From Malacoraja senta (taxonomy: Eukaryota), in assembly GCA_038087875.1 (NCBI GenBank), contig CM075994.1, positions 11,038,001-11,102,000 of the forward strand: a stretch of 64,000 nucleotides of DNA. The letters are read 5' to 3'. The position numbers and the translations under genes were made by a program. The notes under the pieces were generated by a model that was not told where the DNA came from, did no database searches, and was given only the letters and a program-made list of their open reading frames with translations. Below are positions 6,348-60,755 of this stretch, piece by piece (position 1 is the stretch's first letter; each line of letters begins with the position of its first letter).

Positions 6348-7294
6348 TCACTTGATTACATATTTGGATAAATTTAGTTTTGTGTTCAAAAGTTTGAATA
6401 TATTAGCAATGGCAAGAAAGGGACGTGAAATTACATTCTTCAGTTCCTCTCTGAAGTGTCTCTGAGAAACTGCATAAATGAAAGTGTTTGTGCAAGTACT
6501 CAAATACCTCAGCATAAAGCCACTTTTTTCCGCAATGCTGAACGAGTCGATGTAATCTGTTTCCAAAAATTGAGAATCTGTCAACTGTACACAGATGAAG
6601 CACACAAGGTTTACCATCCATAAGAAAATAAAGTTGCCTGATATTGCAACGAGTAAAATGATCGATTTCCTTCTGTTCTCAGTCTCTTGATCAGTCTGAC
6701 ACGCCTCTCTATTACTCCCTCGGAGCTTGCTCCTGACTCTGTTGGCCATGATAATATGCTTTATGGTCAAGGTATTAAGCAGAAGAATCAACACAAATGG
6801 CGCAAATGGGGTTAAGAGTGTTTCAACCCATAAAAGCGCGACCCAGGTGGGTGATGTGTAGAAACTTGAGTTTACATAACAGGACCATGGTACATCATTA
6901 ATTACTTCACGAGGTTCAAACATAAAGTAGACTGGAATATTTTGTAAAATACTTAACATAAACACCACTGTTATTACCTTCAATGCAGTCTTCATGGTAC
7001 AATATTTTGAACGCAACGACTGGCAACATATAACAACAAATCGATCGAATGTAAAAGTGACAGTCAGCCAGACGGAACAATCGAGCGAAATATAAATCAG
7101 TACAAAAATAAAACTGCAAATGGGGGTGTAATTGAGGAATGAATGCGGAAAATATGCCTCTTTAACCTCATAGAGAATTATACTGAAAACCAGTACCATT
7201 AGATCAGCTACCGCCATTGATTTCAGATACTGGATGACACATCTAGTGAGCCCGCACTTTCCAGACGACAGGATAAGGATTGCCACCAAATTTG
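6348..7294 (-). CDS. GPR139/GPR142-like class A GPCR, copy A, exon 2 (TM1 end to C-terminus)
   Basis: Open frame with ANLVAILIL, MAVADL, FTFDRFVVIC (DRY-like) and TNTFIY (NPxxY-like), with hydrophobic helices. Polypyrimidine acceptor TTTTCTTCTTTTGGTTGCAG lies immediately 5' of 7294. Confidence 0.93.
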
Positions 7295-7859
7295 CTGCAA
7301 CCAAAAGAAGAAAATTGAATTACGAACGAGAAATAACCCGCGAAATATATATTAATTTGCTTCAATTTGTCATGCGTGTACGAGTTTTTCTTGCCTTTAA
7401 GACTTTGGAATAACAAACTATATTGCACAGGTTTACGGTTGGACCCCTTTCAATTCAGCAGGTCTGATGCTCCACTAAAATAAAAATATTTGGTCATCGA
7501 GCGAGACATTCCTATGGTAAAAAATACTTCAAATTGAAAAGCCCTCGTGTTTACTGCTCCTTGCAAAATATAAAGTTTCTTAATAAATATAGTCGAAATA
7601 CCCCAGGTTCACATTGCGTTGTTGTCAAATAAACCTGGAGGCAATGACATCATGTTGCTCATAGAGATAATGGCGTACGGTAATGGTAAAAGCAATAGAA
7701 AATGTAACACCGACTGCAAATTCAGTTTGAGGAATTGCAAAAAAAAATCACTAAGTAACAATAACGAGATAAAAGAATGACGGTGTGTTAAGAGTAACGG
7801 TATCTGACGCTGCCTCGCTGAAAGTGGTGTGAAATTCATGATTGGTTAAGGAGATTGAT

Positions 7860-8555
7860 AGCAGTGGAGCAGAATCTTCCTTTAAATATGGACGTTCCAG
7901 AAGGTTAACAGAATGGTCTGGGCGGCAGCCATCTTGCATTCGCGTTGGACTGGGTAGAAGAAAACGGCTATTCTGTGATAGATAATTCAGTGTTTCTCCG
8001 CCCTCTGCATCATCAGGCGGTTACGGACTGTGAAGTGGCCGTTCCTGCCTGATAACCACTCCGTCGAAATTCTTTGTACAGCGAAATTCTTTGTACAGCG
8101 CATCTGGTTTGCAAAAAATCCTCGAGGACATGTCGAAGATTCTGAGACTTCTAATAAAGTGAACACACTGATGCGCTTTGTTGTTATCGCATCTCCGTGA
8201 AGGGACGAGCTATGGTTCTGTTGATATTGATGCCACATAACACGAAATGTTGATCACATTTAGAGATGAGATGGGGCCGTGTTTGTCCTCTCCGCTTCCT
8301 TTGGTTCACACGCAACTGTGTCGTCCAGATATTAACGTCTAGATAGTGTCCTGACTCATTGACAATATGTACCGGATTTCCTTCCTTTACTTCGTCTCAT
8401 CATTCTTGTCGAAGTGCCCGTCAGCAGTGGCATCATCGGCATACATAAAGACGAGTTACTGTTGTACGTGGTCAAACACACATGGGTGTATTTGGAGTAG
8501 AGCATGGACTAAGCACACAGCTCCGAGCAGTAGCAGTGTTGTCGGCTAGCCTTGT
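7860..8555 (-). mobile_element. Old, highly degenerate Rex-type LINE RT remnant in the GPCR intron
   Basis: The copy-B counterpart translates LYSKYTHVC..VFMYADDATVDG..NDETK, an RT YADD region. Confidence 0.6.
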
Positions 8556-11030: not shown

Positions 11031-14000
11031 AATAGTAAGATTAAACGAGAACTTACCTAAGTTTGAAGTTTGATCTTTATTTTATGAGGAGTTACGTAGG
11101 TGATTACGTGAAGAAGCCCGTCAGTGCGCCTGCGCGTCAATCTTCAAAGCAGCGGTGTGAAATCACAAAAACAAGAACCGAAGTAATATAGTCTCATACT
11201 AAAACGAGTAATACAAGAACTTCCATCTGACCTTTATGATAGAGGGTAGGGTCGTGGCGGGCACGTAATCACCTACGTAACTCCTCATAAAATAAAGATC
11301 AAACTTCAAACTTAGGTAAGTTCTCGTTTAATCTTACTATTTTACTTCGGAGTCACGTGAGTGACTACGTGAAGATTTTAAAGCTTTGTGATTTCATGCC
11401 GTGGATCAATCCCGGCTTCTCACTGCATAGATTGACTCGGAACGAGAATAATCAATCATGCATTCATAATAACATTTGTACCACAAATGCAGTAATTCAT
11501 TTCAAGAATGAAATGAATCAGATCCCCTTTAAACCAGAGGAATTTACACAGAACTTAAAATAGTTTCTGCAAACAACCCCGCATTAACAATAGGCCGATG
11601 GTAAAAATGTTGAAACATCAACTCATTGGACCACCCGGCGGCTGCGAGGATATGGTCGACGGGGCCGTCTTTTGCCCTGGCCGCCGACATTTCTGCTGCC
11701 CTAGCCGAGTGAGACGTAAAAACATAAGTGTTAATACCAGCAGTTGTTAAGACTTCTTTTATCCATCTGGAAATAGTCTGTATTGAAACTCTCTTGTGTG
11801 GTTTCTTGTGTGTGATCAAAAACCCAGTTTCCGTATTCTCAAATTCTTTGTGACCTCAATGTATTATAATAAATATGTCTTAATACAAAGACCTGGATCA
11901 TTTGGATATGCTGCCAGCATAATTTTAAATCCTGTCACACCTGGCCTAATTTCCTTTATTAGGTCATAGATATAGAATGTAACCTCGTCTTCAGTTACTT
12001 CCATACTATCTATTTGTAATTTTCCAAGTGTTTGCACTCGTTGTGCTGTCACTCATGCCATAAACATGAATACTTTCATACTGAGCTTGACCAAAGGTAA
12101 AGACACACTTGATAACCATCACGAAGTAGTTTCAGTACCACACTTACATCCCAGATTGTCACGTACCTAGGTTTCGGTGGTTTGGAATTAAAGATTCCTT
12201 TCATTATTCTGAAAACAATTGGGTGTGACCCAATTGAGTTTCTTTCTGAATCCAGAACCAAATATGAGGACAATGCACTTCTGGCTGAATTAATTACACT
12301 ACAACTCAGACCTTCATCATAATAAAGTTTTGACAGAAATTCTAAACATTTGAAATATCTGCAGTACTTTATTGCACATTCTTTTGTACCCAGAACTTTT
12401 CCCATTTCTTAATATAAGAAAGGTACTGTTTTTGAGTGCTCTTCCTCCAGGCTGCCGTAAGCATGTCCACAGTATGCTCAGACAGTCCTCGTCCCAGAAA
12501 AGGCATTCTTAAAACCTGCAAATCAACAAATCCAAACGATCATATAATGGATGTTGTTCCCCTGTACAGGGAGCAGCAATAAATTACTCTTTTTTGGGAC
12601 TTTCATCAACATTTGTGTTGTTAATTCTAATATCAACGGATACCATGGCTGTGTAGGCCAATCTGGTAGTACCAATACCCTTGAAGCAGCATCTTGCCTG
12701 ATTTTAAGCAAACATTGGCTTATGAGGCAGAAAGGTGGAAATATATATGAAAACATACCACCCCAATGTAGCGAGAAAGCATCAATCGCCACTGCTCCTG
12801 GATCTGGTTTCCATGAGACATATCTCGATAGCTGATGATTCAAGTCGATGTCGGTCATTCCAAATCTGATGACTATATCCTTGAATACCTCTTGATTCAA
12901 CATCCATTCTTTATTATCATGGAACTTTTCGTGACTTGGTGTCTGCTATCGTTCATTCTACCTGGTAGATAGATAGCTGAAATCCAAATGTTCTTTTCAA
13001 TACACCAAGCCCAAAATTGATTAACCATTTTGTCACAAGACACCGACTTAATTCCATATCATTAATATAAACAACTACTGTTGTGTTATCAATTTGAACT
13101 TGAACATGCTTATTAGTTGTGTTAGAACAATAAGCTTGGAGCCCATAGAAACATCCTAGCAGCTCCAAATAGTTAATTCCCCATGTCTGCAGTAACAATG
13201 ACTCTTCCTGATTCCATCTGCCTCCTCAGCTAGACGTTAAGTCAGTTGCACCCCATCCTGGTGCACTGGCATCAGTTTGTAATATCATGGAAGGTTGTTC
13301 AATCAGCACTTTGCTGGAACTGCTTGAGACATGTAGAATCCACCACTGCAGACCAGAAACAGCATTTGTTGTTAGTTGCATGGTTCTATCAAAATGACCA
13401 ACATGCATTCTCGGTGCCTGTTCTTTAAGTCTCTGCAGCTGTTGATAATGTAATGGTCCAAATTGGACTGCTGGGAATGCTGCTACTAATTTTCCCAGTA
13501 CACGAGCCACCTGTCTAATTGAAGGTTTTTGCTCGTTTAGGAGATTACTGCAATCTATAATCAAATCCACCCTTTTCCCTGGGCAAAGTGATATTCATTT
13601 GGACTGAATCAATTGTGAACCCCAAATAATTAATAGAGGTACATGGTGTTAACCTAGATTTCTGTGGATGAATTAGAAACCCCAACTTTTCAAAAGTTGA
13701 TTTCACAACTGCAACAGATACTTCTGTTGACTGTTTTGTCTTTCCTATAATCAAGACATCATCCAAATATGCCATTAGTACATGCCCCTGGCTACTCAGC
13801 AAGCCCAGAATTGGTTTTAACAATTTTTGTGAATATTCTGAGTGCAGATATTAACCCATTAGGCAGAGCTTTGAACTGCCACAACTGGTTCATCCATTAA
13901 ATTTAAGATACTTCCTATCTTGTGAATGAACAGACACTGAATAATATGCATCTTTCAAGTCTATAGTTGCCATATAACATGCTTCTGAAATAAGCTGTTT

Positions 14001-15824
14001 GGCAATCACAAATGTTTCCATTTTAAAATGTCTAAATTGCACAAAAGGATTCAGATTTATCAAATCTACAAGAATCCTACATCCTCCATCCTTTTTTGAT
14101 CGAGGGAATATTTTTGACACAAATTGGTGACTTTGGTAGACTGATTTTTCAATAACCCCTTTTTTTTATATAGGGTTTCAATTGCAACCTGAACCTCCAT
14201 CACTTCTTTTTGTACAAAGTGCAGAGTTCGGCTAGGAACATGCTGAACAGGCAAATCATAATTTGGATTGAATTCAATTCGAAATCCTTGTATATTATTC
14301 AGGATTACCACATCTGAAGTAATTTTCTTCCAATTATTATAGAAGAAATGTAACCTGCCTCCAACTTTTGGACTTAATCCAGTTAGTATGTTCCCATGAG
14401 AACCAGGTCCACCTACCTCTTGAGTCATTTCAGTACCCTGAGATTCCTGGGTTCTCCCGGAAGCACGCCCACTGGTTCTTGCTCCCGCTGCAGGCCGCCA
14501 ACTACGTCCCTGCGTTGATGAGCGACTTGGTCCAGGATCCGTATGATGTCTGAAAGGATACTTCCTCTTTACAGACTTCACAACCATTGATGTCTTCATC
14601 AATCCTGTTTTCGCTTCATCTTCCAACTCTTTAATATGTCTCCCGAGATCTCTCCAAAGAGTAAGTTGGGAAATTTGTATATTGCTTGGTTTGCAGAGTG
14701 CTGCGAATTTCGGATTCATAGTAGACCGTATAGCACTTCTCGAAGTGGGTGCTGCATAGCAACCCCAGTGCTTGCTGATGCAACTTCGTCATCTTTTGGT
14801 TGTTACCTGCTATTCTGGTAAAAGCAGTTATTTCAGAACCCAGCAGCTTTAATATTCTCTGCAACTGATTCCAGATACTCTTGCAGTCTCATCCATTTCA
14901 TGCTGTTCCAGCTAATGGTGAACCAAGTAATTTATTAAGGAGGCCAGTTCTTCCTAATGGCTCTCCTGACCCTGACGGGGCAGCGAATCCTACTACCAGG
15001 GTTGGAACATCTGGCAGCTGCCTTTCATCGCCTTGTACAGCCTCACCGTCAGAGTCGGGGTCTGAAATCTCATGACCCGTAGCACGCTCCTCATTCCTGA
15101 GGGTGCATTCCATCAGCCCTGAGCCAGGTGCTGTTAAGCTGCTCCTGCAGCTTGGATTACAGTACACTCCTTCCTGAGTGAACTTTTGCTCCAACAACCT
15201 ATGAAAAAGGCTTCTATTTGGGCAATACGCTCGAAAGCAGTATCTAGCCCTGTACCAGGAGCTGTTTGAGCTGTTTCCAGCAGCTTGGCTTTCAGAACAC
15301 TCCTCACTGAGTGAACGTTGCTCCAACAGCCTGTGTAAAAGGCTTTCTATTTGGGCAATACGCTTTAAAGCAGTATCTAGCCCTGGAGCTTCTTCATTGC
15401 CTGGGACTCCCTCCGTTGGGATTTAAACTTTGTCTTTTGCCCGACAGGCACTGACTGTGTTTTCACCAGCCCCCAGGTCCACAGTCGCTATGCTCACCGC
15501 TGGCGACTGTACCGGGGTTTAGAGGCGGTTGGTCTCTAACCGCGGACTCCCGACTTTCCCGACTTCTGTCGGCTATGTCGCTCGCCTCTTCCCCCTGTCC
15601 GTTTTTTCCCATGGCGTCTGTGGAAAAAATCGCCATAGACCCACAGTAAACGGACCTGGAAAACCTGTAAAAAAGTTTTTACTTACCTTGTAGTTGAAAA
15701 ACTACAAACCACTCGAGGAGCACTGCTCCTCACGTCCGTTTGCGTCAAGGCGTCTGACGTAATGACGCGCAGGCGCACTGACGGGCTTCTTCACGTAGTC
15801 ACTCACGTGACTCCGAAGTAAAAT
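11031..15824 (-). mobile_element. Full-length DIRS1-type tyrosine-recombinase retrotransposon (gag, RT, RNase H, DNA adenine methyltransferase-like, YR), coding region frameshifted
   Basis: RT (IDLKDAYYSV, AYLDDVLI), RNase H (LQTDASAPGWG, NYLEL, QIDNTT), MT-like (IDAFSLHW..YIFPPF) and YR (TAQRVQTL, HSARAA, AGW). Perfect 35-bp inverted repeat 11105..11139 / 15763..15797. Internal complementary region at 11262..11375. Absent from copy B (empty site ~60507). Confidence 0.95.
11262..11375. repeat. DIRS internal complementary region (ICR)
   Basis: 11262..11341 is the reverse complement of 11031..11110, and ~11339..11375 is the reverse complement of 15788..15824. Confidence 0.95.
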
Positions 15825-15996
15825 TTTAGATCCAGTACACAAGTGAGATCAGCACGATACTTTGTTTTTGACAGCACTTTGCAATAATAATTTCATATAA
15901 ATCTGTAATGTTTTCAGATATGTTTGCCATGATGTTCAATATCGTCTGTCAAGCACATCAACGTACATCTGTAAAACCATTCTCTGGCTCACCTAC

Positions 15997-16066
15997 CTGG
16001 GACTCCAATGATTGCAAGAATAGGATAGTAAATACTCTCGGTCTTCAGGAGTGCAGGCTTGTTCAT
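15997..16066 (-). CDS. GPCR copy A, coding exon 1 (MNKPALLKTESIYYPILAIIGVP+G)
   Basis: ATG at 16066 and donor CCAG|GTAGGT at 15997/15996. 70 nt (phase 1) + 947 nt = 1017 nt, giving 338 aa and restoring TM1 as YYPILAIIGVPAN. Conserved in copy B. Confidence 0.9.
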
Positions 16067-17940: not shown

Positions 17941-18800
17941 CGGAATTCCGGAAGTGGCGGCGCTGTCGTACAGCAGCGGCTCGCCTGCAGTCCGTCTGTT
18001 TTTACTTTTTTTGTTGTTTTCTTTTGTCCTGTTTCAGTTAAATTTTAGTTTATTGGGTTGTGTATGTGTGGGGTGGGGGGGTGAAACATGACTTTTGTCT
18101 CTTCCTTCGGGGGAATGCAACTTTTTCTTGTCGTGTTCCCCTTCTCTGCCTCCGTCTGCGCCGAGGCCAAAATGGCGGAGCTGCCGGCCTCCAACTCCAA
18201 CTGCGACCGACCGACCTCGAGGCTCCGGAGGCAGAGCCAGGACTTACCAGCGCGAGGCTGGCCAACTTCGGGGCTGCGGTGGCGTTCCGGCGGTGGCGAC
18301 CGAGGACACTGGTGGCGACCTGAATCCGGAGGCTCGGCCGCGGGCCCAGTGGACGACATCGTCGGGAGCGCGCAGGTCACAGGTTGGTGACCTGTTTTTC
18401 TGGGGCTCCCGCAACTACAGCTGCGTCCGCTGGACTGGAGGGCGGCAGCTTCGGCAGCTTCGACCACCCCGGGCCGCGGAGTTTGAGCCGGCCCGTCGCG
18501 GAGCACGGATTCGGCCGCTGGACTGGCTTACCGTCGCCCGGCGGGGTCACAGCATCAGAAGCCTGGATCGCCTCAGCGCAGAGGGAGAAGAAAGCGGGAA
18601 GAGACAGAGACTTTAAGACTTTTGCCTCCATCACAGTGAGGAGGTGTCTGGTGAACTCACTGTGGTGGATGTTAATTTGTGTTTATTGTGTGTTTTGTCA
18701 TTTATTATTATATGTATGACTGCAGGCAACGAAATTTCGTTCAGACCGAAAGGTCTGAATGACAAATAAAGGAATCTCTAATCTCTCTAATCTCTAATCT
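17941..18800 (+). mobile_element. GC-rich non-coding SINE-like retroelement with Rex-type 3' tail, nested in the Helitron (copy A only)
   Basis: Absent at the equivalent B site (~62805). Ends in hairpin TTCAGACC-GAAA-GGTCTGAA, AATAAA and a (CTCTAAT)n tail. A second, 5'-truncated copy lies at 40355..40655. Confidence 0.8.
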
Positions 18801-20160
18801 CTTTTGCCTTTGCTTTGCTTGGCCTGAAATGAAAGCAAATTGATTGCATTGTTGGCTGGCCCCGTCTGCCCTGTGCTTTTGGTTTGCTTTGCCTTTGCTT
18901 TGCTTGACCTTAAATGAAAGCAAAATGATTGTATTGTTGACTGGCCCCGCCTGCCCTGTGCTTTTTCCTTTGCTTTGCTTGACCTTAAATGAAAGCAAAT
19001 GGACTGTATTGTTGGCCCCGCCTGCCCCGTGCTTGGCTTAGCTTTACTTGACTTGACTTGACTTGAAATGGATTGACCTGACTTGACTTGACATGACTTG
19101 AAATCGATTTACTTGACTTGACTTGACTTGACTTGACTTGACTTGACTTGAAATAGATTGACCTGACTTGACTTGACTTGACTTGACTTTAAATCGATTG
19201 ACTTAACTTGACTTGACGATTTGCTTTGCTTGACCTGAAATGATAGCAAATGGATTGTATTGTTGGTTGCCCCCGCCTGCGCTGTGCTTTTGCTTTTGCT
19301 TTGCCTTTGATTTGCTTGTCCTGAAATGAGAGCAAATGAATTGCATTGTTGGCTGGCCCCGCCTGCCCTCTGCTTTTGCTTTTGCTTTGCCTTTGCTTTG
19401 CTTGACCTGAAATGAAAGCAAATGGATTTTATTGTTGTCCCCGCCTGCCCTGTGTTTGGCTTGGCTTTACCTGACTTGACCTGGCTTGACTTGAATTGCC
19501 TTGGATGACTTGGATTGACTCGGATTGCCTTGGATTGACTTGGATTGACTTGGATTGACTTGACTTGACTTGACTTGAATTGACTTGGATTGACTTGACT
19601 TGGATTGACTTGGAGTGACGTGGAGTGACTAGGAGAGAATTGGAGTGACTTGGAGTGAACTGGATTCACTTTGATTGACGTGGATTGTCATGGATTGACT
19701 TGGATTGACTTGAAATGGATTGACTTGACTTGATTTGAAATGGCTGGACGACTTGACTTGACTTGACTTGACCTGAAATGGATTGACTTGACTTGAAATG
19801 GATTGACTTGACTTGACTTTACTTGAAATGGATTGTCTTGACTTGAAATGGATTGACTTTGTTGGCAAATGGATTGTGTTGTTGGCCCCGCTTGCGATGT
19901 GCTTGGCTTTACTTGACTTGACTTGGCTTGGCTTGGATTGCCTTGGATTGCCTTGGATTGACTTGGAGTGACTTGGATTGACTTGGATTGACTTGACTTG
20001 AAATGGATTGACTTGACTTGACTGGACTTGATGTGAAATGAATTGACATGACTTGACTTGAAATGGATTGACTTGACTTGACTTGAAATGGATTGTTGGC
20101 ACTGCACTCACTGTGCTTGACTTGACTTGACTTTACTTGATTTGACTTGACTTGACTTGT
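18801..20160. repeat. Compound satellite: ~70-90-bp minisatellite units with (TTGAC)n and (TTGGATTGAC)n arrays
   Basis: Direct inspection. Source of the KSSQV/VNPSQ pseudo-ORFs. Paralogue at ~62720..63440. Confidence 0.95.
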
Positions 20161-20277
20161 TGGCCCTGCCCTCCGGTTGATCCAAATGTCCCGCTCATTC
20201 CGGAAGTCCCGCTCGATGGAGAGGCCGTGCTCAGCCGCGTGAGTAGATTCAAGAGATTTTACTGTCGTATATATCTT

Positions 20278-26080: not shown

Positions 26081-29049
26081 TTTTTTTGTTGTTGTTTTTA
26101 ATATTTTTTTATTGGAGATACGTACACAACCTAGTTACATCATTACAGTCTTACATTTTTAAATTGATAATATTGTCAATTATTATTACATTGTCTCCAA
26201 TACCTTTTGCCTTTTAAAAAAAAAAACTAAATAGAACTAAAGAGAAAGATGAAGTAAAGAAAGAAAAGAAAGAGAAGAAAAACAAAAAATAAATAAATAA
26301 ATAAAGAAAAAAGAAAAAAGATAGTTAAAGAAGAATGGAAAAATTTATTAAAATAGAAAACTTCATTCGAGATATATTCGTACATTTCTAAATATAGCAT
26401 TTCATCCATTCTTTAGCCCGGGTGCTAGTCAGGTTCCTGTGCTGAACTGTTCTGACCCTTTAAGTAATCAATAAAAGGAGACCATGTTCCAACTAATAAT
26501 TCCTGTTTGTCCAACAGGGAGAATCTGATTCTTTCCACGTTTAATGTCTCCGTCATTTCTATAATCCACATTTTGATTGTGGGGGTCGTAGGGCCTTTCC
26601 AAAATTTTAGAATTAATTTTTTTCCTGTTATTAAACTATAATCAATAAAGTTTCTTTGTGTTGTTCTAAATGTTTGATTTAATTCTAATATTCCAAGTAT
26701 TATTAATTTTGGATCTGGGTCCAATTGTGTGCTGGTTACTTTAGATATTATACTGAAAATATTTACCCAGAATGTTTTAATTTTTATACAGTTTGCAAAC
26801 ATATGAGATAAGGTAGCTTCTAAATGTTGACATTTATCACATATAGGTGAGATATGTTGAAAATTTTTATGTAGTTTTGTTTTTGAATAATGTAACCTAT
26901 GTATTACTTTAAATTGTATTAGAGAATGTCTGGCGTTTAATGAACATTGATGTATGTGTTGCAAACTTTCTTCCCAAGTATCTTTGGTTATTATTTGATT
27001 TAATTCTTTTTCCCATGTTTGTCTGTGTAAGTCCGTCGATGGAATGTCACTGTCTAATAAGATATTATATATATAAGATATTAATTTTTCTGTATTAGGA
27101 TGTTTGTTCCAACATTCATCAAGAATTTCTGAATTTCTAATTCGAAAATTTTGAGTATTCGATTTTACATAATCTCTAAATTGAAGATATCTGAAATAAT
27201 CATTTCCTCGAAGTCCATAAGTCTGTTGCAACTCCTGAAATGTCAGAAAAGTGCCTTCCTTGTAAAGTTGTCCCATATTTTTAATTCCATAATTCTTCCA
27301 TTGTGTAAAACCCCCGTCCAACCATGAAGGCTTAAACAAAGGGTTATTCACAATTGGAAGAAAAAGTGATAAATTATCTAATTTTAATGTCTTTTTTAAT
27401 TGTTTCCAAATTCGTATAGCACTAAATATTATAGGGTTTTCCCTATAAATTTTTTTGTTTAATTTAGACGTAGCAAATAATATCGAACCGATATCAAAAG
27501 GTAAACAATCTTCCTTTTCCATTTTTAACCAGTCTGGTTGATGATCTATTTCTTCCAACCAGAAATTCATATTTTTAATATTAACTGCCCAGAAATAAAA
27601 CAAAAAGTTGGGTAAAACCAAGCCTCCATTTATTTTTGATTTACACAAATGTCTTTTGTTTATCCTATGATTCTTATAATCCCAGATAAAATCATTAACA
27701 ATAGAGTCCAGTTTAAAAAAAAAGTTTTTTGCCAGATATATCGGAATTGTCTGAAAAAGGTATAATATTTGCGGTAAAAAAATCATTTTTATGGCATTAA
27801 TTTTGCCAACCATTGAGATAGGAAGTGTTTTCCAGTATTTAATATTCTTATGTAGTTTATTCAGTAATGGTGGAAAATTTGCTTTAAATAATGATGTATA
27901 TATCTTAGTTACATAAATACCTAGATATTTAAATTTTTCCTTTACTATTTTAAATGGAAATTGTTGTATTATCTGTTTGTTATGTTCCCTTATTGGCATA
28001 ATTGCACTTTTATTCCAATTTATTCTGTATCCTGAAAGTGAACCAAATTGGGTTATTAGCTTTAATAAGTTTGGAATACTAATTTCTGGTTTTGCAATGT
28101 AAATTAATACATCATCTGCGTATAGAGAAATTTTATTCACTGTGTCCTTTGTGTTATATCCGTGTATTTCCGGATGCCCCCTGACTCTTTCTGCAAGTGG
28201 CTCAATAGCAAGCGCAAATAATAATGGAGATAACGGGCATCCTTGTCTACAACCTCTAGATAGGCTAAATTTAGATGACAACCTTTGGTTTGTAAATATT
28301 CTAGCCGTGGGATTTGTATATAACAGTTTTATCCATGTACAGAATTTCTCCCCTAGCTGCATATTTTCCATCACCGAAAATAAATAAGACCATTCGACCT
28401 GATCAAATGCTTTTTCAGCGTCAAGTGAGATTATTGCTAGATCTTCATTAATAATTCTCTTGGAATATATAATATTAAATAATCTTCTTAGATTATAATA
28501 TGAGTACCGTTTCAGAATAAAGCCTGTTTGGTCAGGGTGTATTAATTTATTCATCACTGTACTTAATCTATGCGCTAGTATTTTAGTTAATATTTTCTGA
28601 TCTGTATTTAAAAGTGCAATTGCTCTATATGATCCCGGGTCTTCCGGATCTTTATCAGCTTTAGGAATAAGTGTTATTATAGATTCATTTAAAGTGTCTG
28701 GAAGTTTCTGTTGAGTATAGATATACTCATACAGTCTTTGTAAACGTGGCCAAAGCAAATCATAATTTTTTAAATAAAATTCAGAGCCTAAACCATCTGG
28801 TCCTACTGCTTTACCATTTTTTAAAGAGCCAATAGACTCCTCAATATCTTTTATGGTAATCTCCCTTTCTAATAATTCTCTATCGTTTGAATCTAAACAT
28901 TTTAAATTACATTTTAGTAAAAAATCTGCTATTCCTTCTGATTGTCCTTCGGTTTTAGTTGAATAAAGGTTATGATAGTATTGGAGAAATCTATCATTTT
29001 TGTCCTTGGGCATTTTTAATAATTCTCCTGTCTCTGTTCTAATTTTATG
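26081..29049 (-). mobile_element. 5'-truncated L1 (ORF2 RT plus C-terminal CCHC region open to the stop at 26425; 3' UTR; A-rich tail)
   Basis: KAVGPDG, YRAIALLN, LDAEKAFD, RQGCPLSPLLF, LYADDV and CDKC..HMFANC. AATAAA at 26108..26113 (minus) followed by an A-rich tail at 26081..26107. Confidence 0.95.
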
Positions 29050-34608: not shown

Positions 34609-34610
34609 CA

Positions 34611-39308: not shown

Positions 39309-40202
39309 CTAATATATTGACAATCTCCATCCTGTCCACCGGAAAGTGTGGGCTCTCCATATGGATCACCCGGTATCTAGTATGGATGGCGGCAGCTAAC
39401 CTATCGCATCTGATATTTGGTCCAATACTTTTTGAGATTAATGATGCGTTTTTCCACGTTCAGTCCTAGATTACACTCCAATCTGCCGTCTCAATATGAC
39501 CTTGATTTATATTGTTATTGATTGTTCCGATTGTGTCGTTTACCTTTGATCGATTTGTTTCTATTTGTGGTCAGTCGTTAAAAACTAAGTACTGCACTGA
39601 AAAAAATCAACAACGGTTATAACGATCGTTTGTTTATTATGCATTGTCGAAAATATGCCGGTTTTCTTCTTACTTGAACCACGTGAAGTAATTGACAATG
39701 TGCCCCGATACTGCACTGCAAAATCAAGCTTCTATAATTTACCTATTTGGGCTGCATTCTTATAGTTAGAGACCATCTTAACACTATTTCTACCATTTGT
39801 GTTGATCTTCCTGTTCAACGCCTTAACAATAAGTCATATTATACGGGCGAACAGAATCAGAAACAAATTACGGGGAAACGAAAGTGAGAAGTGCCGGATG
39901 GATTAAGAAATTGAGAACCGACGGAAATCGATCATTTTACTACTCGCGATATCTGGTCGTTTCCTTCTATTGTGGACGGTAAATTTTGCTTGCTTTGATG
40001 CTCTACATTTTACCGATAATCAACTGATGAAATCTGATTACAGAGATCATTCGCCGTTGCAGAAGAAACTGGATTCCAGTTAAGAGTTTTAAGCACTTGT
40101 CCAAACACGTTCATTTATGCTGCGTCCCAACGAAACTTCAGAGATGAAATGAAGAAAATGATTAAACGGCCTCTTGTTTTACTTTCTAAATTATTGAAGT
40201 GA
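39309..40202 (+). pseudogene. GPR139-like GPCR paralogue, exon 2, frameshifted pseudogene
   Basis: Acceptor CTTTGCAG|CT AAT at the same phase-1 site. ANILTISILSTGKCGLS, FDRFVSIC, ENRRKSIILLLAISG and NTFIYAASQRNFRDE. Frameshifts (~39455, ~39530) and in-frame stops (~39763, ~39904). Exon 1 not found. Confidence 0.9.
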
Positions 40203-44195: not shown

Positions 44196-44284
44196 GCCTT
44201 CCAACGTTGCTTGGGAGGGAGAAAGGAGAAAGCAAATATGCGTCAAGGCGATAGCCTAATCGTTAAAGTTAAAAGATTGCCTAA

Positions 44285-50108: not shown

Positions 50109-53100
50109 CTATGTTTGTAATAATTCTATAAATGCAGACCACGTCAGGTGGAAGTGATCTGGTTTACCTGCTAGGAGGAGTCTTATCTCTTCTAGGTGTA
50201 ATGTTTCAAACATATTTGAAATCCACATATTTATAGTTGGTATTGGAGCCTTCTTCCAAAATTTTAGAATTAGCTTTTTTCCAGTTATTAACCCATAGTC
50301 CATTAGTTTCTTTTGAAACACATTTAGTTCTGCACCATCTTCCGGTATACCGAAGATAATCCATTCTGCTTTGGGTATCAGTCTTGTTTTAAATAACATT
50401 GTAAAGATTTCAAAAATGTCATTCCAAAATTTTTGAATTTTTGTACAAGAAACGAATGAGTGCGTTATGGTAGCTTCTTGGGATTGACATTTATCACAAA
50501 TAGATGATACATTTGGGAAAATTTTATGAATTTTAGTTTTCGAATTATATAATCTATGTAAAATTTTAAATTGTATTAAAGTGTGTCTTACATTAATCGA
50601 GCATTTATGCACGTGTAATAAGTATTCATTCCAACTTTCCTTTGAAATTTTAATAGCTAACTCTTGTTCCCAGTCTCTTCTGATACCCTCCGTAGATGGT
50701 ATTTGTGCATTTAAGATAATATTATACAAATATGATATTAAGTTTGCTGATTCCGCTTTTATCTGCATTGCCTCATCCAGTACATCTGCTGGGTTATTAT
50801 GATGATCTTTTGTATATTTTTTCAAATAGTCGCATATTTGAAAATATTTAAAATATTGATTATTTCCGAGTTTATATTTTATTTGTAATTGTTGAAATGA
50901 AAGTAATTTTCCAGTTTCATACAAGTCACCAAGCGTTTTAATTCCTAATCTATCCCATTGTGTATAAGCTTTATCTATAATAGAAGGATTAAACGAAGGG
51001 TTATTGACTATAGGTAATAAAAGTGATAAATTTCTTAATTTTAAATTTTGTTTTATTTGTTTCCAAATTCGGATTGTACTATGAATATTTGGGTTCTTAT
51101 TATAATTTATGTTATTCAATTTCATTGGAGAGAGGAGGATCGCTCCAATGTTTCTAGAGGAGCAATCCTCTTTCTCCATTACAATCCAGTCCGCTTGCTG
51201 GGCCGAGTTATCCATCAGTTGAATCATATTTTTAATATTTACTGACCAATAATAATACATAAAATTAGGTAGTGCTAAACCCCCTAATACTTTAGGTTTA
51301 TTCAGATGAGTTTTTTGTATTCTATGTGATTTATAGTCCCATATAAAATTAGTGATATCTGAGTCGAGTTTTTTAAAAAACTTCTTTGGTAAGTATATAG
51401 GAATTGATTGAAATAGGTATAAAATTTGTGGTAAAAAGATCATTTTTATTGCGTTTATTCGGCCTATTAAAGACATCGGGAGCGTTTTCCAGAATTTAAT
51501 TAGTGTGTTTAATTTATTAAGTAAGGGGTCAAAATTTGCCCTAAACATACCTTGATATGATCTGGTAATTTCGATTCCCAAATATTTAAATTTTTCTGTA
51601 GCTATTTTAAAAGGGAATTTTAAAAGATGTGTTGAATCTTTCGGTTTTATTGACATAATGTCACTTTTATTCCAATTTATTCTATATCCAGAAAAAGATC
51701 CAAAATCTTCAATTAAATTTAATATATTTGGTATAGTGATTTGAGATTTTGTAATGTACAGTAATATATCATCCGCGTATAAAGATATTTTATTATATGA
51801 ATCTTTAGTATTATATCCATGGATATCAGGGTGTATTCTATTTTTTTCTGCTAGCGGTTCAATAATGAGAGCAAACAGCTGTGGTGATAATGAGCATCCT
51901 TGTCTATTTCCCCTTGATAGTTGGAATTTCGAGGATAATATGATATTAGTTAGTATTCTAGCTGTAGGTTTGTTATATAGTAACTTGATCCATAGAATAA
52001 AATTCACCCCCAGTTGAAATTTTTGTAATACTTTGTCCATATAATTCCATTCTACTTGATCAAATGCTTTTTCAGCATCCAGCGAAATAATTGATAATTC
52101 TTCATCTTCAGATTTGTGTGAGTGCATTATGTTGAGTAGACGTCTCATATTGTTAGACGAGTATCTCTTAGGGATAAACCTCGTCTGATCTGGGTTTATT
52201 AATTTACTAATGTATTTACTTAATCTTGAGATTTGTGCACCCAGTTCCTCTTGTTCCTTCAGTTCTAACTTTGGAAGATTACAGGTATCCAAGAACTTTG
52301 TGATATTATTGGAATCAATTGTCGTTTTAGATGTATAGAAATTCTCATAAAATTGCGCAAATCTATTATTAATATCCTTTGGTGTTGTTAATAATTCCCC
52401 TTTATCTGATTTGATCTTTGGTATAGTATGTTCCTTTTCTCGTTTTTTTAGCTGGCGAGCCAAAAGTTTATGCGGTTTATCCCCAAATTCAAAGTGCTCT
52501 TGTTTTGTAATTTGAAAAAGTCTTATAAGTTTGGCAGATAATAATTTATTTAATTTAAATTTCAAAATTATTATTTTATTATGTTTATCTATTGATGGAT
52601 CTTTAGCATTATCTATATCCATTAGTCTAATAAGTTCTTCTAACTGTCTTTGTTCATTCTTATTCTTTTTATTTTGAAAAACTTGATATGAAATTATAAT
52701 ACCCCTAATGTATGCTTTAAAAGATTCCCATAATACAGTAGGCGATATATCTGGAGTATCATTTATTTGAAAAAAGACCTCCATTTGTTCTTTTAAATAT
52801 ATACTCGCTTGTGGATCTTTTAGAATTTGAGAATTAAATCTCCAAAACGTTTTATTCTTAGACAATCCTTCCAGTTTTAAAAAGAAAGTTAGTGGAGAAT
52901 GGTCTGAAATCGAGTTTGTGTGGTATATTGCATTAGATGTTTGGGGGATTAATTTTGTATCCAGCAGAAAGTAGTCTATACGTGAGTATGTCTTATGTAC
53001 CATTGAATAAAACGAGTATTCCCTGCCAGTTGGATTAACAATTCTCCAAACATCTGCTATATTAGTGTTGTTTATATAGGTATTGAGAAGTTCCCCAGTT

Positions 53101-53615
53101 TTCGATTTCATATTCCCTCTCTGTTTTTGACTTGATTTATCTAAGTACGGATCTAAAACACAGTTAAAGTCTCCTCCTATTATAACATTTTGATAGTTTG
53201 ACTCTGCAATTATGTTGAAAATTTTATTGAAAAAGTGGGGGTTATCAAAGTTAGGGGCATATATATTTACCAAAGTAAGTGGAGTATCATGGATTTCTCC
53301 ATTAACTTTTAGGTATCTCCCTTCTATATCTGTTATAATATTCTTTGCTTTAAATGGTATACCTTTTCTTATGATGATTGATGTGCCTCTAGACTTTGAA
53401 GTAAATGAAGAATGATATGTTTGACCTATCCATTTCGCCCTCAACCTAACTTGATCCTGAGATTTTAGGTGTGTTTCTTGTAGGAAGATAATGTCGGAGT
53501 TGTACAATTTCAGCTGAGCTAGTATTGTACCCCTTTTAATAGGTTCGTTAATACCTCTTATATTCCAACTACAAAATGAGATTCTTCCTAGGTTCTTTTG
53601 TGTGGTGTCATGCAT
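50109..53615 (-). CDS. L1 ORF2p (APE endonuclease + RT + CCHC), open but with an in-frame internal deletion
   Basis: SWNIRG, LQETH, GGDFN, SRIDY, SDHSP; LDAEKAFD, YADD; CDKC..HSFVSC. Lacks the GPDG..YR.I.LLN segment. Confidence 0.93.
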   Translation of the reverse strand: MHDTTQKNLGRISFCSWNIRGINEPIKRGTILAQLKLYNSDIIFLQETHLKSQDQVRLRAKWIGQTYHSSFTSKSRGTSIIIRKGIPFKAKNIITDIEGRYLKVNGEIHDTPLTLVNIYAPNFDNPHFFNKIFNIIAESNYQNVIIGGDFNCVLDPYLDKSSQKQRGNMKSKTGELLNTYINNTNIADVWRIVNPTGREYSFYSMVHKTYSRIDYFLLDTKLIPQTSNAIYHTNSISDHSPLTFFLKLEGLSKNKTFWRFNSQILKDPQASIYLKEQMEVFFQINDTPDISPTVLWESFKAYIRGIIISYQVFQNKKNKNEQRQLEELIRLMDIDNAKDPSIDKHNKIIILKFKLNKLLSAKLIRLFQITKQEHFEFGDKPHKLLARQLKKREKEHTIPKIKSDKGELLTTPKDINNRFAQFYENFYTSKTTIDSNNITKFLDTCNLPKLELKEQEELGAQISRLSKYISKLINPDQTRFIPKRYSSNNMRRLLNIMHSHKSEDEELSIISLDAEKAFDQVEWNYMDKVLQKFQLGVNFILWIKLLYNKPTARILTNIILSSKFQLSRGNRQGCSLSPQLFALIIEPLAEKNRIHPDIHGYNTKDSYNKISLYADDILLYITKSQITIPNILNLIEDFGSFSGYRINWNKSDIMSIKPKDSTHLLKFPFKIATEKFKYLGIEITRSYQGMFRANFDPLLNKLNTLIKFWKTLPMSLIGRINAIKMIFLPQILYLFQSIPIYLPKKFFKKLDSDITNFIWDYKSHRIQKTHLNKPKVLGGLALPNFMYYYWSVNIKNMIQLMDNSAQQADWIVMEKEDCSSRNIGAILLSPMKLNNINYNKNPNIHSTIRIWKQIKQNLKLRNLSLLLPIVNNPSFNPSIIDKAYTQWDRLGIKTLGDLYETGKLLSFQQLQIKYKLGNNQYFKYFQICDYLKKYTKDHHNNPADVLDEAMQIKAESANLISYLYNIILNAQIPSTEGIRRDWEQELAIKISKESWNEYLLHVHKCSINVRHTLIQFKILHRLYNSKTKIHKIFPNVSSICDKCQSQEATITHSFVSCTKIQKFWNDIFEIFTMLFKTRLIPKAEWIIFGIPEDGAELNVFQKKLMDYGLITGKKLILKFWKKAPIPTINMWISNMFETLHLEEIRLLLAGKPDHFHLTWSAFIELLQT

Positions 53616-54441
53616 TTTGAATAATTATAGTACCTTTAAATCTTGTGGTGCATCCAAATCCCAGGTCTTTAGGTATTGGGGGAGCTTTTGAGTTTTTAAG
53701 TTTTGCTGTTATGTCCATTTTACGCTTATCACTAAACACAAAACACAAACAAGTGATTTCATGTGATAAAAAAAAAACTAAAAAAGTGAAGATACAGTGT
53801 CTGATATAGTCGGCACTGTAGCGAGTGTCCCACCTGTAGGTGGGAAAAAACCTTGTTTTGACTTCCATTGCGTTGTTACACAAATAGCTCCGCTCTCTTG
53901 GTTAATCATAACATATTATAATATTAAAACGGGGCCTCACATTCAGATATATAATACACTTTTACCCTGTATGTTTCATTGTAACATATATATATATCGG
54001 AATTTTAATTACTGATTATTAAACCGATACTTTTGACTTCAATAAGAATCAACTGATGGTTGAAGGGGTTAACGAGACGTGCCCCTGGACCTAAGCCAGT
54101 TGCTCGTTTCTCATCCCCTCCTCCCACTTATAGATAAGGTTTCAGTTTATTAAAAATTCATATTAGTATGTTAGTTCGTTATTTTTTATTTTTGTTTTTA
54201 TTAGTATTCTAATCTAACAAGCATAACTTATTAAGTTGTTAATAGGATAAGTTCTTACAATTGGTTATAATATTATAATCTAATAAGCAATTATATGCTT
54301 TCTGGTATATACCATTGCCATCTGTTCAGTTGTTTACTCGTTTTGAACAAAAAGTGTCCTTGATTCAACATTCCGAAGATAACAGTGTAACTATCCCCAG
54401 ACAAAGCATTGCTTAAAATGGTTCAGATCTCCCTTTCCTTT

Positions 54442-55589
54442 CTATTTTTCAACGATAGTTTGAGCATATTTAAACGCTTCTTCAGGCTTAACAAATGACT
54501 TTTCAAGACCCTTAAAGGAAATACGCATTTTCGCGGGATAAAAAATCCCAAATCTGATCCCTTCTCTCCCTCTTAAAAGATCTTTAACCTTCTCAAATTT
54601 GTTTCTTTTTTGCACAATTTCATACGGGTAGTCCCTGAATATCTTAATAGTATCATTGTCCAGCCGCAGTTGCACACCGTATTTGATTTTACTCATAACA
54701 TCTTCCAGTTCTAAAATGTCCCGAAATTTCACAATAATATGTCGTGGATAAGTTTTTCCCGCACCAGATCTTTGTTTAAATCTTGGGACACGATGAGCCA
54801 CTTCGATTTTCGGTTCTTTGGAAAGATTCAGCAGTTGTTTAAGCAAGCCCATGGCAAACTCACGTACATCCTCCCCTTCGGCTCCCTCTGAAACTCCAAG
54901 AATTCTCAAATTCTGGCGTCTAGAGCGAGCTTCCAGGTCCAGGCATTTGACTGAGACTTTCTCCAGTTGAGTCACCATCTGTAGTGAAGTTTGTTCGTTT
55001 TCTCGCCTCATTTGCTCATGTTCTTGCCTCATTTTCGCCATGTCTTTAACCATTCGAGCCGTGTTTTTCTCCAATTCCGTAATTGTGCGCATACTTGCAG
55101 CTACTGTTTCAAGCACAGCCGTGAACTTATCCGTATTAGTTTGATCCATCTTGCCCATTCTCTCTGATAGTCCATCTTTCACCTCATCAATTCGTTTATT
55201 CATAATGTCCAGTGAATCAATCATATTCTTCTGGTTACCAGCATTTAATTCCCTCATCATCTTCTCCATTCCTTCCATCATTTTTGCCATATTTCCTTCA
55301 TTTCCTTCTTATCTTCCTTCATATTTTCTTTCATTTCCTTTTTATCTTCCTTCATATTTTCCTTCATATTTTCCATCATAATTTTATTTTCATCCAAAAT
55401 CTCATCTTTCATATTTTTCACTGATTTCTTCAAGTCATCAAACTCTTTCTTAGATCTTGTATCCATTTCTGCAGCCACTTCAGAGACTTCAGAGACTTCA
55501 GAGGTAACTTCTGCTTCAGATTTCTTCTGGTCTTTCAGCAGCTTTTTCACTGTTCTCTGAGGGCTCACAGCTGGAGACAGTTTTCTCAT
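54442..55589 (-). CDS. L1 ORF1p (coiled coil + RRM + CTD), split by a 1-nt frameshift near 55292
   Basis: DLEARSRRQNLRILGV, AHRV, PRHIIVKF and YPAKMRI. N-terminal ENMKEDKKEMK repeats lie in the upstream frame. Confidence 0.88.
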
Positions 55590-56454: not shown

Positions 56455-57401
56455 TCACTTGATTACATATTTGGATAAAGTTAGTTTTGTGTTCAAACGT
56501 TTGAATATATTAGCAATGGCAAGGAAGGGACGTGAAATTACATTCTTCAGTTCCTCTCTGAAGTGTCTCTGAGAAACTGCATAAATGAAAGTGTTTGTGC
56601 AAGTACTCATACACCTCAGCATAAAGCCACTTCTTTCCACAATGGTGAACGAGTCGATGTAATCTGTTTCCATAAATTGAAAATCTGTAAACTGTACACA
56701 GATGAAGAACACAAGGTTTACCATCCATAAGAAAATAAAGTTGCCAGATATTGCAACGAGTAAAATGATCGATTTCCTTCTGTTCTCAGTCTCTTGATCA
56801 GTCTGACACGCCTCTCTATTACTCCCTCGGAGCTTGCTCCTGACTCTGTTGGCCATGATAATATGCTTTATGGTCAAGGTATTAAGCAGAAGAATCAACA
56901 CAAATGGCGCAAATGGGGTTAAGAGTGTTTCAAACCATAAATACACGACCCAGGTGGGTAATGTGTAGAAACTTGATTTTACATAACAGGACCATGGTAC
57001 ATCATTAATTACTTTGCGTGGTTCAAATATAAAGTAGAGTGGAATATTTTCTAAAATACTCAACATAAACACCGCTGTTATTACTTTCAATGCCGTCTGC
57101 ATGGTACAATATTTTGAACGCAACGACTGGCAACATATAGCAACAAATCGATCGAATGTAAAAGTGACAGTCAGCCAGACGGAACAATCGAGCGAAATAT
57201 AACTCAGTGTAATAACAAAACGGCAAATGGGCGTGTAATTGAGGAATGAATGCGGAAAATATGCCTCTTTAATCTCATAGAGTATTACATTGGAAACCAG
57301 TACCATTAGATCAGCTACCGCCATTGATTTCAGATACTGGATGACACATGTAGTGAGGCCGCACTTTCCAGACGACAGGATAAGGATTGCCACCAAATTT
57401 G
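56455..57401 (-). CDS. GPR139/GPR142-like GPCR, copy B, exon 2
   Basis: Open 947-nt exon with the same acceptor. FTFDRFVAIC and TNTFIY. Confidence 0.93.
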
Positions 57402-60400
57402 CTGCAACCAAAAGAAGAAAATTGAATTACGAACGAGCAATAACCCGCGAAATATATATTCATTTGCTTCAATTTGTCATGCGTGTACGAGTTTTTCTTG
57501 CCTATAACACTTTGGAATAGCAAACTATATTACACAGGTTTACGGTTGGACCCCTTTTAATTCTCAGACTTCTCATAAAGTGAACACACTGTTGCGCTTT
57601 GTTGTTATCGCATCTCCGTGAAGGGACCAGCTATTGTGTTGGTGATATTAATGCCACATAACACGAAATATTGATCACATATAGAGATGAGATGGGGCGG
57701 TGTTTGTCCTCTCCGCTTCCTTTAGTTCACACGCAACTGTGTCGCCGAGATGTTAACGGCTAGATAGTGTCCTGACTTAATGACACTATGTACCGGATTT
57801 CCTTCCTCTATTTCGTCTCATCATTCTTGTCGAAGTGCCCGTCAACAGTGGCATCATCGGCATACATAAACACCGAGTTACCGTTGTACGTGGTCAAACA
57901 CACATGGGTGTATTTGGAGTAGAGCATGGACTGAGCACACAGCTCCGAGCAGTAGCAGTATTGTGGGCTATCCTTGTGGAGACGGTAAAACCAATTCCAC
58001 GTGATAGGAGCCTGCCTGGCCTGAAGTCCAAAGCCCATTTGCAGCTGGATACCCGTCGGCCAAGGATGTTTAGAGATGCTTATTAATTTCAGATTTGATT
58101 TGTCACGTGTTTGGCACTCATGTTACCTTAGTTTATCTCGTGGAAACCGCGCCTCCCCACTGATAATCACACAGATTTAATTTTCGCAGCTTATCTGCAA
58201 ATGTGACATTTAGAGCTCACAGCAGCATGTACATTGTTGCCCCCCTCTGCATACACACTTCTCACATTCCTCATTCTGTGCCTCTACTGTAATAAATTAG
58301 CAGGGGGCAATCATTAACATTTTCATGGCAACCTGCTGTCCATTTCTCTCCCCTTAGAGTCCACGTACACACATTAATTTCCGATATGGCTGACCAAGCA
58401 GGCTGACGTCTGATATCCGCTACAGAGGCTGTGCGGCGGATGCGATTCACACATGAATTCGGCACACATATCATGGACCGAGGTCCAGACTTTCGAAAAG
58501 CCAGATAACCTTTGATACTTAACATTTATCGCCAGTTTCATTTGTGAAACATCTCCAATGGCTCAAGGCAAGCTAGAAAATATTGGAATTGATTTAACAC
58601 ACTAAATAATGAAACACTTCAGCATTAAAACAACCGATTTAATTTAAACATCTGAAGCATCTTCCAAAGAATTCAAACTTACTGAGAAATGGAAGGGCAA
58701 TCACTTGCTTTAATTACTACCGCCACGTCGACCAGGACCATATTCAAATGATTTTGTCACGCTACCTTTTGTTATCTGCCGTCACGGCATTAAATTGGTT
58801 GCGGACACAAATTGTGCTCATACTCACTATACGCAGTTCCAATTCTAAACACACGTGTGCTTCCGATACGGTGGTGAACGACAGAAAGGCCGGCATCAGT
58901 CCGCCAGCTCCCCTCGGTGGTGTCTTGGCGCTTTGAAATTCAGTCAATCACAGATGGTAGACCGTTGCTCCAGAGCCAAGAAAAACCGGGCAACACAACT
59001 CAACGGCAGAGGCACAACCTGTCGATAAGTTCACTGCTTCAACCGTCATGATCGGCTTTCAACACAAGTACATCCCGACCCGCTCTACTGACTGACAGGT
59101 TGGCATTTTCCTGCTAAAAATGTGCAGTTTGCAAACCGCTAAATGCGTGGGATCGTTGTCTATCCTACAAGACGAATTCATTGGGAAACATAAATGTAAG
59201 ACCCATGCGCTAGAAGTATGCGTGCGCAACCCCGGAATAACCCTGTTGGCCGTGTGACAATACGTGTTGAAGGGCTCCAGGAAGAGGTTGAATTCCGGTT
59301 TGATAATCTCGAACACTTGCAAATATGTAACCATTTAAAGAAGCAACACGATGCAATTTCTCGAGCTGTGACTGCTGTAGGTCTGATGGGTTAAATGCGA
59401 ACATACGACATCTCAGCTCAATAATGTCTAGGTACCGCATCTAATACACTTTTGGTGATAAGCAACATCATAACTAAAGAGAGAGCGTGCTCTTGGAAGT
59501 GATTAGGCGTAGTCTCGACCCAAACTACTAAACTTGGAGCATGCCATAATCTCCGCTACACAACCCATCGCAGTTTGCAGATGGATCCTCAACACTTTAA
59601 TCACCGGCGATAAGAACAAAAATATTAGCGATTAAATCTGGCAAAACAGTCTAAAAGCAACAGGTGACCCAAAACGTCACCCATTCCTTCTCTCCAGAGA
59701 TGCTGCCTGTCCCGCTGAGTTACTCCAGCATTTTGTGTATAAAAGCAATAAGTGTTTTACCTTTCTTCTGAATGTCTGCTGAATATAAAATTAAATCTTC
59801 CTGAAATGCAACGGCGAATTTTATTTTTCCTGCTGTCAAATCTAGGTCACATCAGGACCATTAGACAGTTTCACTTTGTGCAACTTGTATTTAAATGTTA
59901 CAATGCTTTAAAAGAAACCACGTTGCTCAGCCTTAGTAAACCGTGAGCTAATTTAGCTGAGCATTCACAATGGAAATAAAAAGACGTGTGTTTTATGGAA
60001 ACTCACCGACAGCATCCCTCGACTTGCATGTTTTATTTCGCGGTAAGTTATCAGACAGATGAGGCACCTGCGATCATAACATGCGCACGGACTCGCACAC
60101 ATGACTGACATTCTTTAGCGAGAGTTACAGAATACAGAGAACAGCATCCATCAAACCGTTTTTTTTTTAATTTCGGCCGTGAAGTCTAAAGTTAAAATCA
60201 GTTATGATCGATAATGCTCAGCAGCAAGCCGCCGTACGTTTACTTGTTCTTCGTATAATGAAGCTATGCAAAATCAACTGCATGGAATGAAAATAGAAAG
60301 AGCTTGAAACATCGCGTTTATATGCAGACCCCTCTTTGGATGCGTTGAATCGGCCATTGTTCAGGTGGACTGTGTATGAGGTGGAGAAGGAGGGCTTGTT

Positions 60401-60685
60401 GTGTCCAGTGGGCTTGACTAATATAAAATATATAGAATATTATATTACTTATAAAACGTTTATATATAATTTTACGGTCAGAGAAATTCAATCATTTTTC
60501 CAGATGATTTTTAGATCCAGTACACAAGTGAGATCAGCACGATACTTTGTTTTTGACAGCACTTTGTTTGCAATAATAATTTCATAGAAATCTGTAATGT
60601 TTTCAGATATGTTTGCCATGATGTTCAATATCGTCTGTCAATCACATCAACGTACATCTGTAAAACCATTCTCTGGCTCACCTAC

Positions 60686-60755
60686 CTGGGACTCCAATGA
60701 TTGCAAGAATAGGATAGTAAATACTCTCGGTGGTCGGGAGTGCATGCCTGTTCAT
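60686..60755 (-). CDS. GPCR copy B, coding exon 1 (MNRHALPTTESIYYPILAIIGVP+G)
   Basis: ATG at 60755, donor CCAG|GTAGGT, 70 nt. Confidence 0.9.

Follow-up and report, generated by a model that had tools for sequence, protein, structure and literature searches.

Among receptors of solved structure, the one closest to the family considered here by family profile is human GPR139 (E 1.6e-17, against 7e-13 for the next), for which the available part of PMC5430874 describes an agonist pocket, modelled and mutated, comprising positions 3.29, 3.32, 3.33, 5.43, 6.48, 6.51 and 7.38/7.39, that binds Trp, Phe and synthetic agonists. A further point of reference is 'GPR210', an orphan receptor near GPR139 and GPR142 which a 2019 survey, in the portion available, reports as three subtypes in coelacanth, gar and fishes (PMC6504862). 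Here we describe a 64,000-nucleotide stretch of the Malacoraja senta genome (contig CM075994.1, positions 11,038,001 to 11,102,000; hereafter the window), which carries two intact receptor genes, A and B, and a dead copy, C, that an earlier note had picked out as part of a tandemly expanding set of 'GPR139-like' orphans. The family to which they belong is a birth-and-death receptor repertoire, it is real, and it is under strong pocket-directed selection.

It is on balance probable that sharks and rays carry an undescribed system that comprises between one and three thousand genes for class A G-protein coupled receptors (GPCRs), is comparable in scale to the mammalian odorant receptors, derives from one conserved gnathostome orphan and has a pocket still diversifying under strong selection, in an innate immune or an unrecognised chemosensory role. 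If so, a giant orphan class A family sits under the automatic name 'probable GPR139', though cartilaginous fishes have been called poor in GPCRs in the accessible text of PMC8455134. Neither the expansion nor a selection test on it is described in the papers reached by a full-text search, although subscription papers, several supplements and the white shark paper fall outside that scope and may list the family. The shark genome and chemosensory papers in whose available parts no description occurs are PMC10620051, PMC10115646, PMC11979771, PMC8455134 (with its supplements), PMC12361510, PMC12294341, PMC13113109 and bioRxiv 10.1101/2025.06.08.657570, the catshark supplement and the bioRxiv tandem-cluster tables being beyond what was covered.

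Diversification of the predicted ligand pocket

Gene conversion inflates the likelihood ratios of codon models and a test that uses no tree was therefore preferred, in which distinct variants were counted per site among 31 non-redundant close paralogues, 26 pocket positions having been set in advance, numbered by motif anchors and taken from the GPCR literature. Distinct non-synonymous variants reach 0.75 per site in the pocket, 0.48 in the outer half and 0.14 in the inner half, against neutral yardsticks of 0.32 for synonymous sites and 0.30-0.33 for the non-coding flanks, the corresponding ratios to the synonymous rate being 2.32 (p 4e-5), 1.49 (p 0.005) and 0.44 (p 3e-6). The ligand side is thus diversifying and the cytoplasmic side under purifying selection, as had been proposed earlier, and the ratios differ between regions instead of lying uniformly near 1. 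All 15 sites with at least four amino acids lie on the outer half. The observed counts, 133 variants in the outer half, 41 in the pocket and 15 such sites, were reached in none of 450 simulations of a neutral outer half matched to synonymous variation, 300 of which included gene conversion and were matched to site conflict as well. A first, uncalibrated null was discarded; it gave 16 four-amino-acid sites against the 15 observed, since it held 337 variants against 265, and calibration to the synonymous count brought the number down to about four.

The pattern recurs in smaller samples and in a second subfamily, with pocket, outer and inner ratios to synonymous of 3.55, 2.57 and 0.47 for the seven copies on the window's own contig (C18), 3.35, 2.48 and 0.36 for A against B alone, and 4.59, 3.24 and 0.33 for the second subfamily (38 of 40 retrieved copies left after collapsing, picked by protein search and biased to intact frames). 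In this second subfamily six to eight different residues are found at 6.51, 3.29, 7.35, 2.61, 7.36, 3.33, 3.32 and 2.65. The diversifying positions as a whole are 2.57, 2.61, 3.29, 3.32, 5.38, 5.42, 6.51, 7.35/7.36, 7.39 and 7.43, and those conserved include the DRF motif, the cysteines joining transmembrane helix (TM) 3 and extracellular loop (ECL) 2, and the inner parts of TM2, TM3, TM6 and TM7. The synonymous rate in ECL2 is high, a caveat on the counts there. Codon models run on the 31 copies gave likelihood ratios of 86.5 for M2a over M1a and 85.7 for M8 over M8a, with an omega of 4.7-4.8 on 11-12% of sites (0.98 under M0) and a posterior above 0.9 at residues 61 (2.57), 90 (3.32), 145, 171, 177 (5.38), 181 (5.42), 264, 280 (7.36), 287 (7.43) and 330 in the tail. 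We consider it very probable that the pocket diversification in the young subfamilies is selected, and its focus on the pocket shows, so far as sequence can speak, at least two subfamilies that would be functional and under strong pressure.

The window, its genes and the size of the family

Six-frame translation located genes A and B as two long minus-strand frames, in which all motifs quoted in the earlier note lie at the places it gave. Each gene has two exons, a first exon of 70 nt, a GT..AG intron in phase 1 and a product of 338 amino acids, and the only Pfam domain above cut-off in either is 7tm_1, whose 69 bits against a curated cut-off of 30.5 establish class A membership (Table 1). The activation motifs N1.50, D2.50, DRF, P5.50, W6.48, N7.49 and Y7.53 are present, with P6.50 replaced by V and P7.50 by T. 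The two genes differ at 37 amino acids and 50 nt, by the NG86 method 39.5 non-synonymous and 10.5 synonymous changes (dN 0.053, dS 0.046), in keeping with the hand count of about 37 residues and roughly 40 and 10 changes reported before; in their non-coding flanks the two differ by 1-5%, so the synonymous divergence is about neutral. The five nucleotide changes counted in exon 1 are there, but they make four amino acid changes, and as two fall in one codon the statement that all are non-synonymous depends on the path taken. The whole-gene dN/dS of about 1.16 was dropped as a proof of selection, the overall ratio being uninformative, and the family-level test was used in its place.

The N-terminus and outer half, 141 of the 338 residues, hold 31 of the 37 differences (Fisher p 5e-8), and the clustering claimed for them is therefore borne out. 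An identical block, given as about 75 residues of inner helices and loop, does exist in A and B as 74 residues (181-254) with a single synonymous change, but it is neither purely intracellular nor fixed across the family, since residue 181 (5.42, the first of the block) shows five amino acids among 40 distinct coding sequences and residue 252 (6.51) shows four. Gene conversion is not needed as the origin of the block, one synonymous change being found where about 2.6 are expected, and family-wide its synonymous variation is 0.27 per site against 0.32 for the gene as a whole.

Both genes sit inside a direct tandem segmental duplication that carries its repeats along. The insertion in the intron of A contains pieces of a reverse transcriptase (PF00078) and, below cut-off, a weak match to a tyrosine recombinase (PF00589), an architecture which we take to be that of a DIRS-like retroelement. 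Copy C is dead, as had been reported, but it belongs to another subfamily and did not arise from the A/B duplication, being about 61% identical to A via its intact relative P0047; no first exon was found for it by a motif scan of the 64-kb window. A long interspersed nuclear element (LINE), a second LINE frame and a compound satellite were also observed.

Table 1. Features located in the window, in window coordinates
Feature	Position	Strand	Remarks
Gene A exon 1	16066-15997	-	N-terminus and outer TM1, 23 codons + 1 nt; donor GTAGGT
Gene A exon 2	7294-6348	-	TM1 to C-terminus and stop; Pfam 7tm_1 E 5e-19
Gene B exon 1	60755-60686	-	70 nt, as in gene A
Gene B exon 2	57401-56455	-	Pfam 7tm_1 E 1e-18
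Pseudogene C, exon 2 remnant	39310..40202	+	Several stops and frameshifts
Duplicated unit 1	1..19437		Gene A and flanking repeats; main blocks 93-97% identical to unit 2 (self-BLAST)
Duplicated unit 2	44122..63444		Gene B; same orientation as unit 1 (self-BLAST)
Insertion in intron of A, ~4.8 kb	11032..15823	-	No counterpart in B; broken reverse-transcriptase and tyrosine-recombinase pieces
LINE	50112-55308	-	Between duplicated blocks of unit 2; 1,171-aa endonuclease and reverse-transcriptase frame, 288-aa upstream frame
Second LINE frame	26428-29238	-	937 aa
Compound satellite	18800-20160 and 62730-63440		Upstream of both genes; 86-bp unit grading into 5-bp CTTGA repeats; part of duplicated unit

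A search of the skate's own genome scored 127 of 3,405 candidates and retrieved 70 of the 127, of which 56 match exon 2 of A at a DNA identity of 90% or more. Among these close copies, found by a search that favours intact ones, 44 have a full exon 2 frame, 8 have an altered tail only and 4 are broken early, and the 31 paralogues used above were obtained by merging those of the 44 that lie within 3 nt of each other. Contig C18, which holds the window, has seven close copies within about 0.5 Mb. Genome-wide, two family motifs occur at 973 and 1,065 places, their reversed controls at 0 and 1, so that the birth-and-death family suspected earlier is a large one of at least 1,065 motif-bearing places, a count which includes pseudogenes and possible haplotigs. 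On contigs C1-C16 both motifs are carried by 26 of the 49 places matching the first, from which a rough 2,000-3,300 loci can be extrapolated, again counting pseudogenes, with 92-95% of the matches beyond C16 and many of them on small contigs, which could be haplotigs. Many second-subfamily copies lie within 1-3 kb of the end of a contig; the assembly would seem to be interrupted at the arrays, and copy number is therefore uncertain both upward and downward. On C15 (11.03-11.12 Mb, L142-L161) twenty family copies are spaced 2-9 kb apart, with dead copies sharing one internal deletion recurring along the array, i.e. pseudogenes amplified along with it.

Database searches gave 1,134 matches to the family and 2,505 with the second subfamily as query; the 110 named among the best 120 of the former are all elasmobranch proteins, 48-70% identical and carried as 'probable GPR139', and the family therefore spans sharks and rays. 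These RefSeq and UniRef models, labelled 'probable/putative G-protein coupled receptor 139', 'sex peptide receptor-like' or 'neuropeptides capa receptor-like', belong to the same family and bear automatic names. No chimaera protein was seen among the nameable matches, no search having been aimed at chimaeras. The description 'lineage-specific' accordingly holds only for the young subfamily, which has about 56 copies, the family as a whole being elasmobranch-wide and its C15 cluster not diversifying. Across L112-L141 the sequence immediately before exon 1 and the first 100 bases of the intron hold 0.10-0.13 variants per site, a figure that rises to 0.2-0.58 farther out; the low variation within 200 bases upstream of the start codon suggests a conserved promoter or 5' untranslated region, as read from copies that were chosen by similarity there and are so biased.

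Relationship to GPR139 and the wider clade

The nearest relatives outside sharks, obtained by a profile search of 1.84 billion representatives and cluster look-ups, are proteins of a salamander, coelacanth, teleosts, bichir and amphioxus. In a tree of 38 rows, from which GPR142 was absent and whose root was placed on unnamed invertebrate proteins, the salamander gene is placed as sister of the elasmobranch expansion (91/93), this pair is joined by a clade of skate locus L072 and the coelacanth (99.8/100), and then by the clade of skate locus L110 and by amphioxus; GPR139 falls outside that group, to which it is joined at 81/90. Three vertebrate clades thus stand beside GPR139, namely L110 with anchovy and bichir, L072 with coelacanth and silverside, and the amphibian gene with the elasmobranch expansion. 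By raw similarity gene A is slightly nearer to the coelacanth protein (33%) than to that of the salamander (29%), so the exact sister is less certain than the clade. L072 (C5:32.54 Mb, 62% to the coelacanth protein) and L110 (C5114, 50% to the anchovy protein) each appear to be a single conserved orphan receptor of the wider group, and both are unstudied.

The name 'GPR139-like' therefore holds at the level of a sister group only. The genome has a single separate GPR139 on C5, to which A is 21% identical, and this identity together with the position of the genome's own GPR139 outside the clade rules out A and B as its orthologues. GPR142 was not found with GPR139 exon 2 as query, the only search made for it. 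The family shares with GPR139 its intron position, a phase 1 splice acceptor before the TM1 Asn being common to all six genes tested, GPR139 included, and it keeps W6.48, but it does not keep R6.51 or E3.32, and it has C3.25 and an ECL2 cysteine where none is aligned in GPR139. The Trp/Phe pocket of GPR139 (E3.32, F3.33, H5.43, W6.48, R6.51, N7.38/39) is not kept, the aligned residues of gene A being I, Y, E/T, W, N and F. The orphan sister group of GPR139 that holds the expansion is likely to be 'GPR210', although the Ensembl identifiers could not be matched to the proteins used here. The three subtypes of that receptor agree with the three vertebrate clades, but the survey gives no expansion and in its accessible text has no cartilaginous fish ('shark' and 'cartilag' with 0 occurrences; PMC6504862).

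The sister receptor of amphibians and sturgeon behaves differently from the skate copies: among 19 sequences, two partial ones having been excluded, 9 of the 12 positions variable in the skate are invariant and the other 3 show conservative V/I or M/I changes. This salamander-type gene is listed as one 90% cluster per species in 20 amphibians and one in sturgeon, which is not a genome count. An AlphaFold model of the receptor has a seven-transmembrane fold (predicted local distance difference test score 87.5) with a beta-hairpin in ECL2, and fold searches return class A structures at Z of about 25, the top matches being mostly peptide receptors; no single relative stands out among them, GPR139 being tied with other peptide receptors.

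Candidate roles and comparison with known repertoires

We give roughly even chances to the view that the young copies of the A/B family form a surveillance repertoire for foreign, fast-evolving peptide-like molecules acting through a shared G-protein pathway. New copies are made by segmental duplication, flanks included, and copies die through stops and frameshifts, as C in the window has done, and the predicted pocket diversifies while the cytoplasmic half and the activation motifs stay as they are. Each copy would have its own ligand range, all copies may signal alike, their conservation pointing to fixed G-protein coupling, and the ligands would be foreign, fast-changing peptides or peptide-like molecules, given the peptide-receptor ancestry and the ECL2 beta-hairpin of the model. 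The cells would most likely be immune or barrier cells of gut, gill and skin or leukocytes, which are favoured since selection of this strength between copies that have diverged by only about 4% is suggestive of an arms race.

A possible but less probable alternative is that of an unrecognised chemosensory repertoire, expressed in olfactory, taste or solitary chemosensory cells and tuned to waterborne peptides or amino-acid derivatives, which would offset the small known odorant-receptor set of sharks and rays. The selection pattern fits this equally, as does a large birth-and-death family with pocket diversification, the C15 cluster excepted; the main olfactory family of the catshark, v2r, has only 32 canonical genes in the available text of PMC11979771, cartilaginous fishes are described in the part of PMC8455134 cited above as poor in olfactory receptors too, and GPR139 is reported to bind Trp and Phe (PMC5430874, in part). 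On the other side 'GPR' has 0 occurrences in the main text of the catshark sensory-organ paper, a weak point as its supplement is outside scope (PMC11979771). Immune or barrier surveillance is nevertheless placed ahead.

Co-evolution of the receptors with endogenous peptides encoded by a multigene family, for instance reproductive, pheromonal or sperm-egg signals, is improbable. GPR139/142 relatives do cluster with invertebrate MIP/allatostatin-B, proctolin and FMRFamide receptors in the accessible part of PMC12208981, and the modelled fold resembles that of peptide receptors, but no matching expanded ligand family is known to us, none having been searched for, and more than a thousand copies are far above known hormone systems.

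Several observations weigh against the surveillance reading, or against the selection on which it is built. The sequence fits an immune and a chemosensory role alike. Pocket numbering comes from motif anchors and a literature list, not from measured contacts. The C15 cluster (12 of 20 retrieved copies usable) shows no pocket diversification, with ratios of 0.44, 0.64 and 0.26. Gene conversion inflates the codon-model likelihood ratio (86.5), nulls going as high as 67, and likelihood ratios were rejected as sole proof after nulls with gene conversion gave 12-39 (an over-diverged null) and 2-67. Residue 61 lies in a CpG context in many copies, as does the C-terminal site 330 in part, and some 30% of the close copies have another copy no more than 3 nt away and could be alleles or haplotigs. 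The one RNA run with reads (X7), which comes from another organism and of which 6% was covered, has a depth of 3-5 on part of exon 2, with intron reads and no splice joint; the sequence runs X1, X4 and X6 behave as genomic contigs spanning the intron, and the Logan proteins are unspliced read-throughs.

It is nonetheless very unlikely that the copies are mere passengers of segmental duplication with a relaxed outer half, the pattern being made by gene conversion or mutation hot spots. The dN/dS of A against B, the M0 omega and the many pseudogenes would suit such an origin, as would the 18% of informative site pairs that are incompatible, although a distance-based recombination test is not significant (p 0.17). 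The tree-free count is, however, insensitive to shuffling among copies and exceeded every calibrated null run, synonymous variants in pocket codons are few (4 on 18 sites, and 0 on C18), the exon 2 frame is complete in 44 of the 56 close copies, albeit in a search that favours intact ones, and the same method is silent in the C15 cluster, so that the counting does not create the signal by itself. That the outer face changes only to evade pathogen proteins or toxins, the true ligand being constant, is hardly to be expected either, for although loop sites 149, 164, 171, 264 and 271 vary as well, the most variable sites include the deep 3.32, 5.42, 6.51 and 7.43, whose changes of charge and size would alter ligand binding.

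Copies that are 96% identical and a handful of pocket residues apart, together with a conserved amphibian counterpart (Xenopus included), give material for a direct test. Birth-and-death repertoires are known from the OR, TAAR, V1R, V2R, T2R, FPR and MRGPR families, and in the present family a giant receptor repertoire would have arisen independently, out of a peptide-receptor lineage. It resembles those families in its tandem clusters, its pseudogenes and its subfamily-specific diversification of the pocket, and it differs from them in its separate origin from the sister group of GPR139 and in its two-exon gene.

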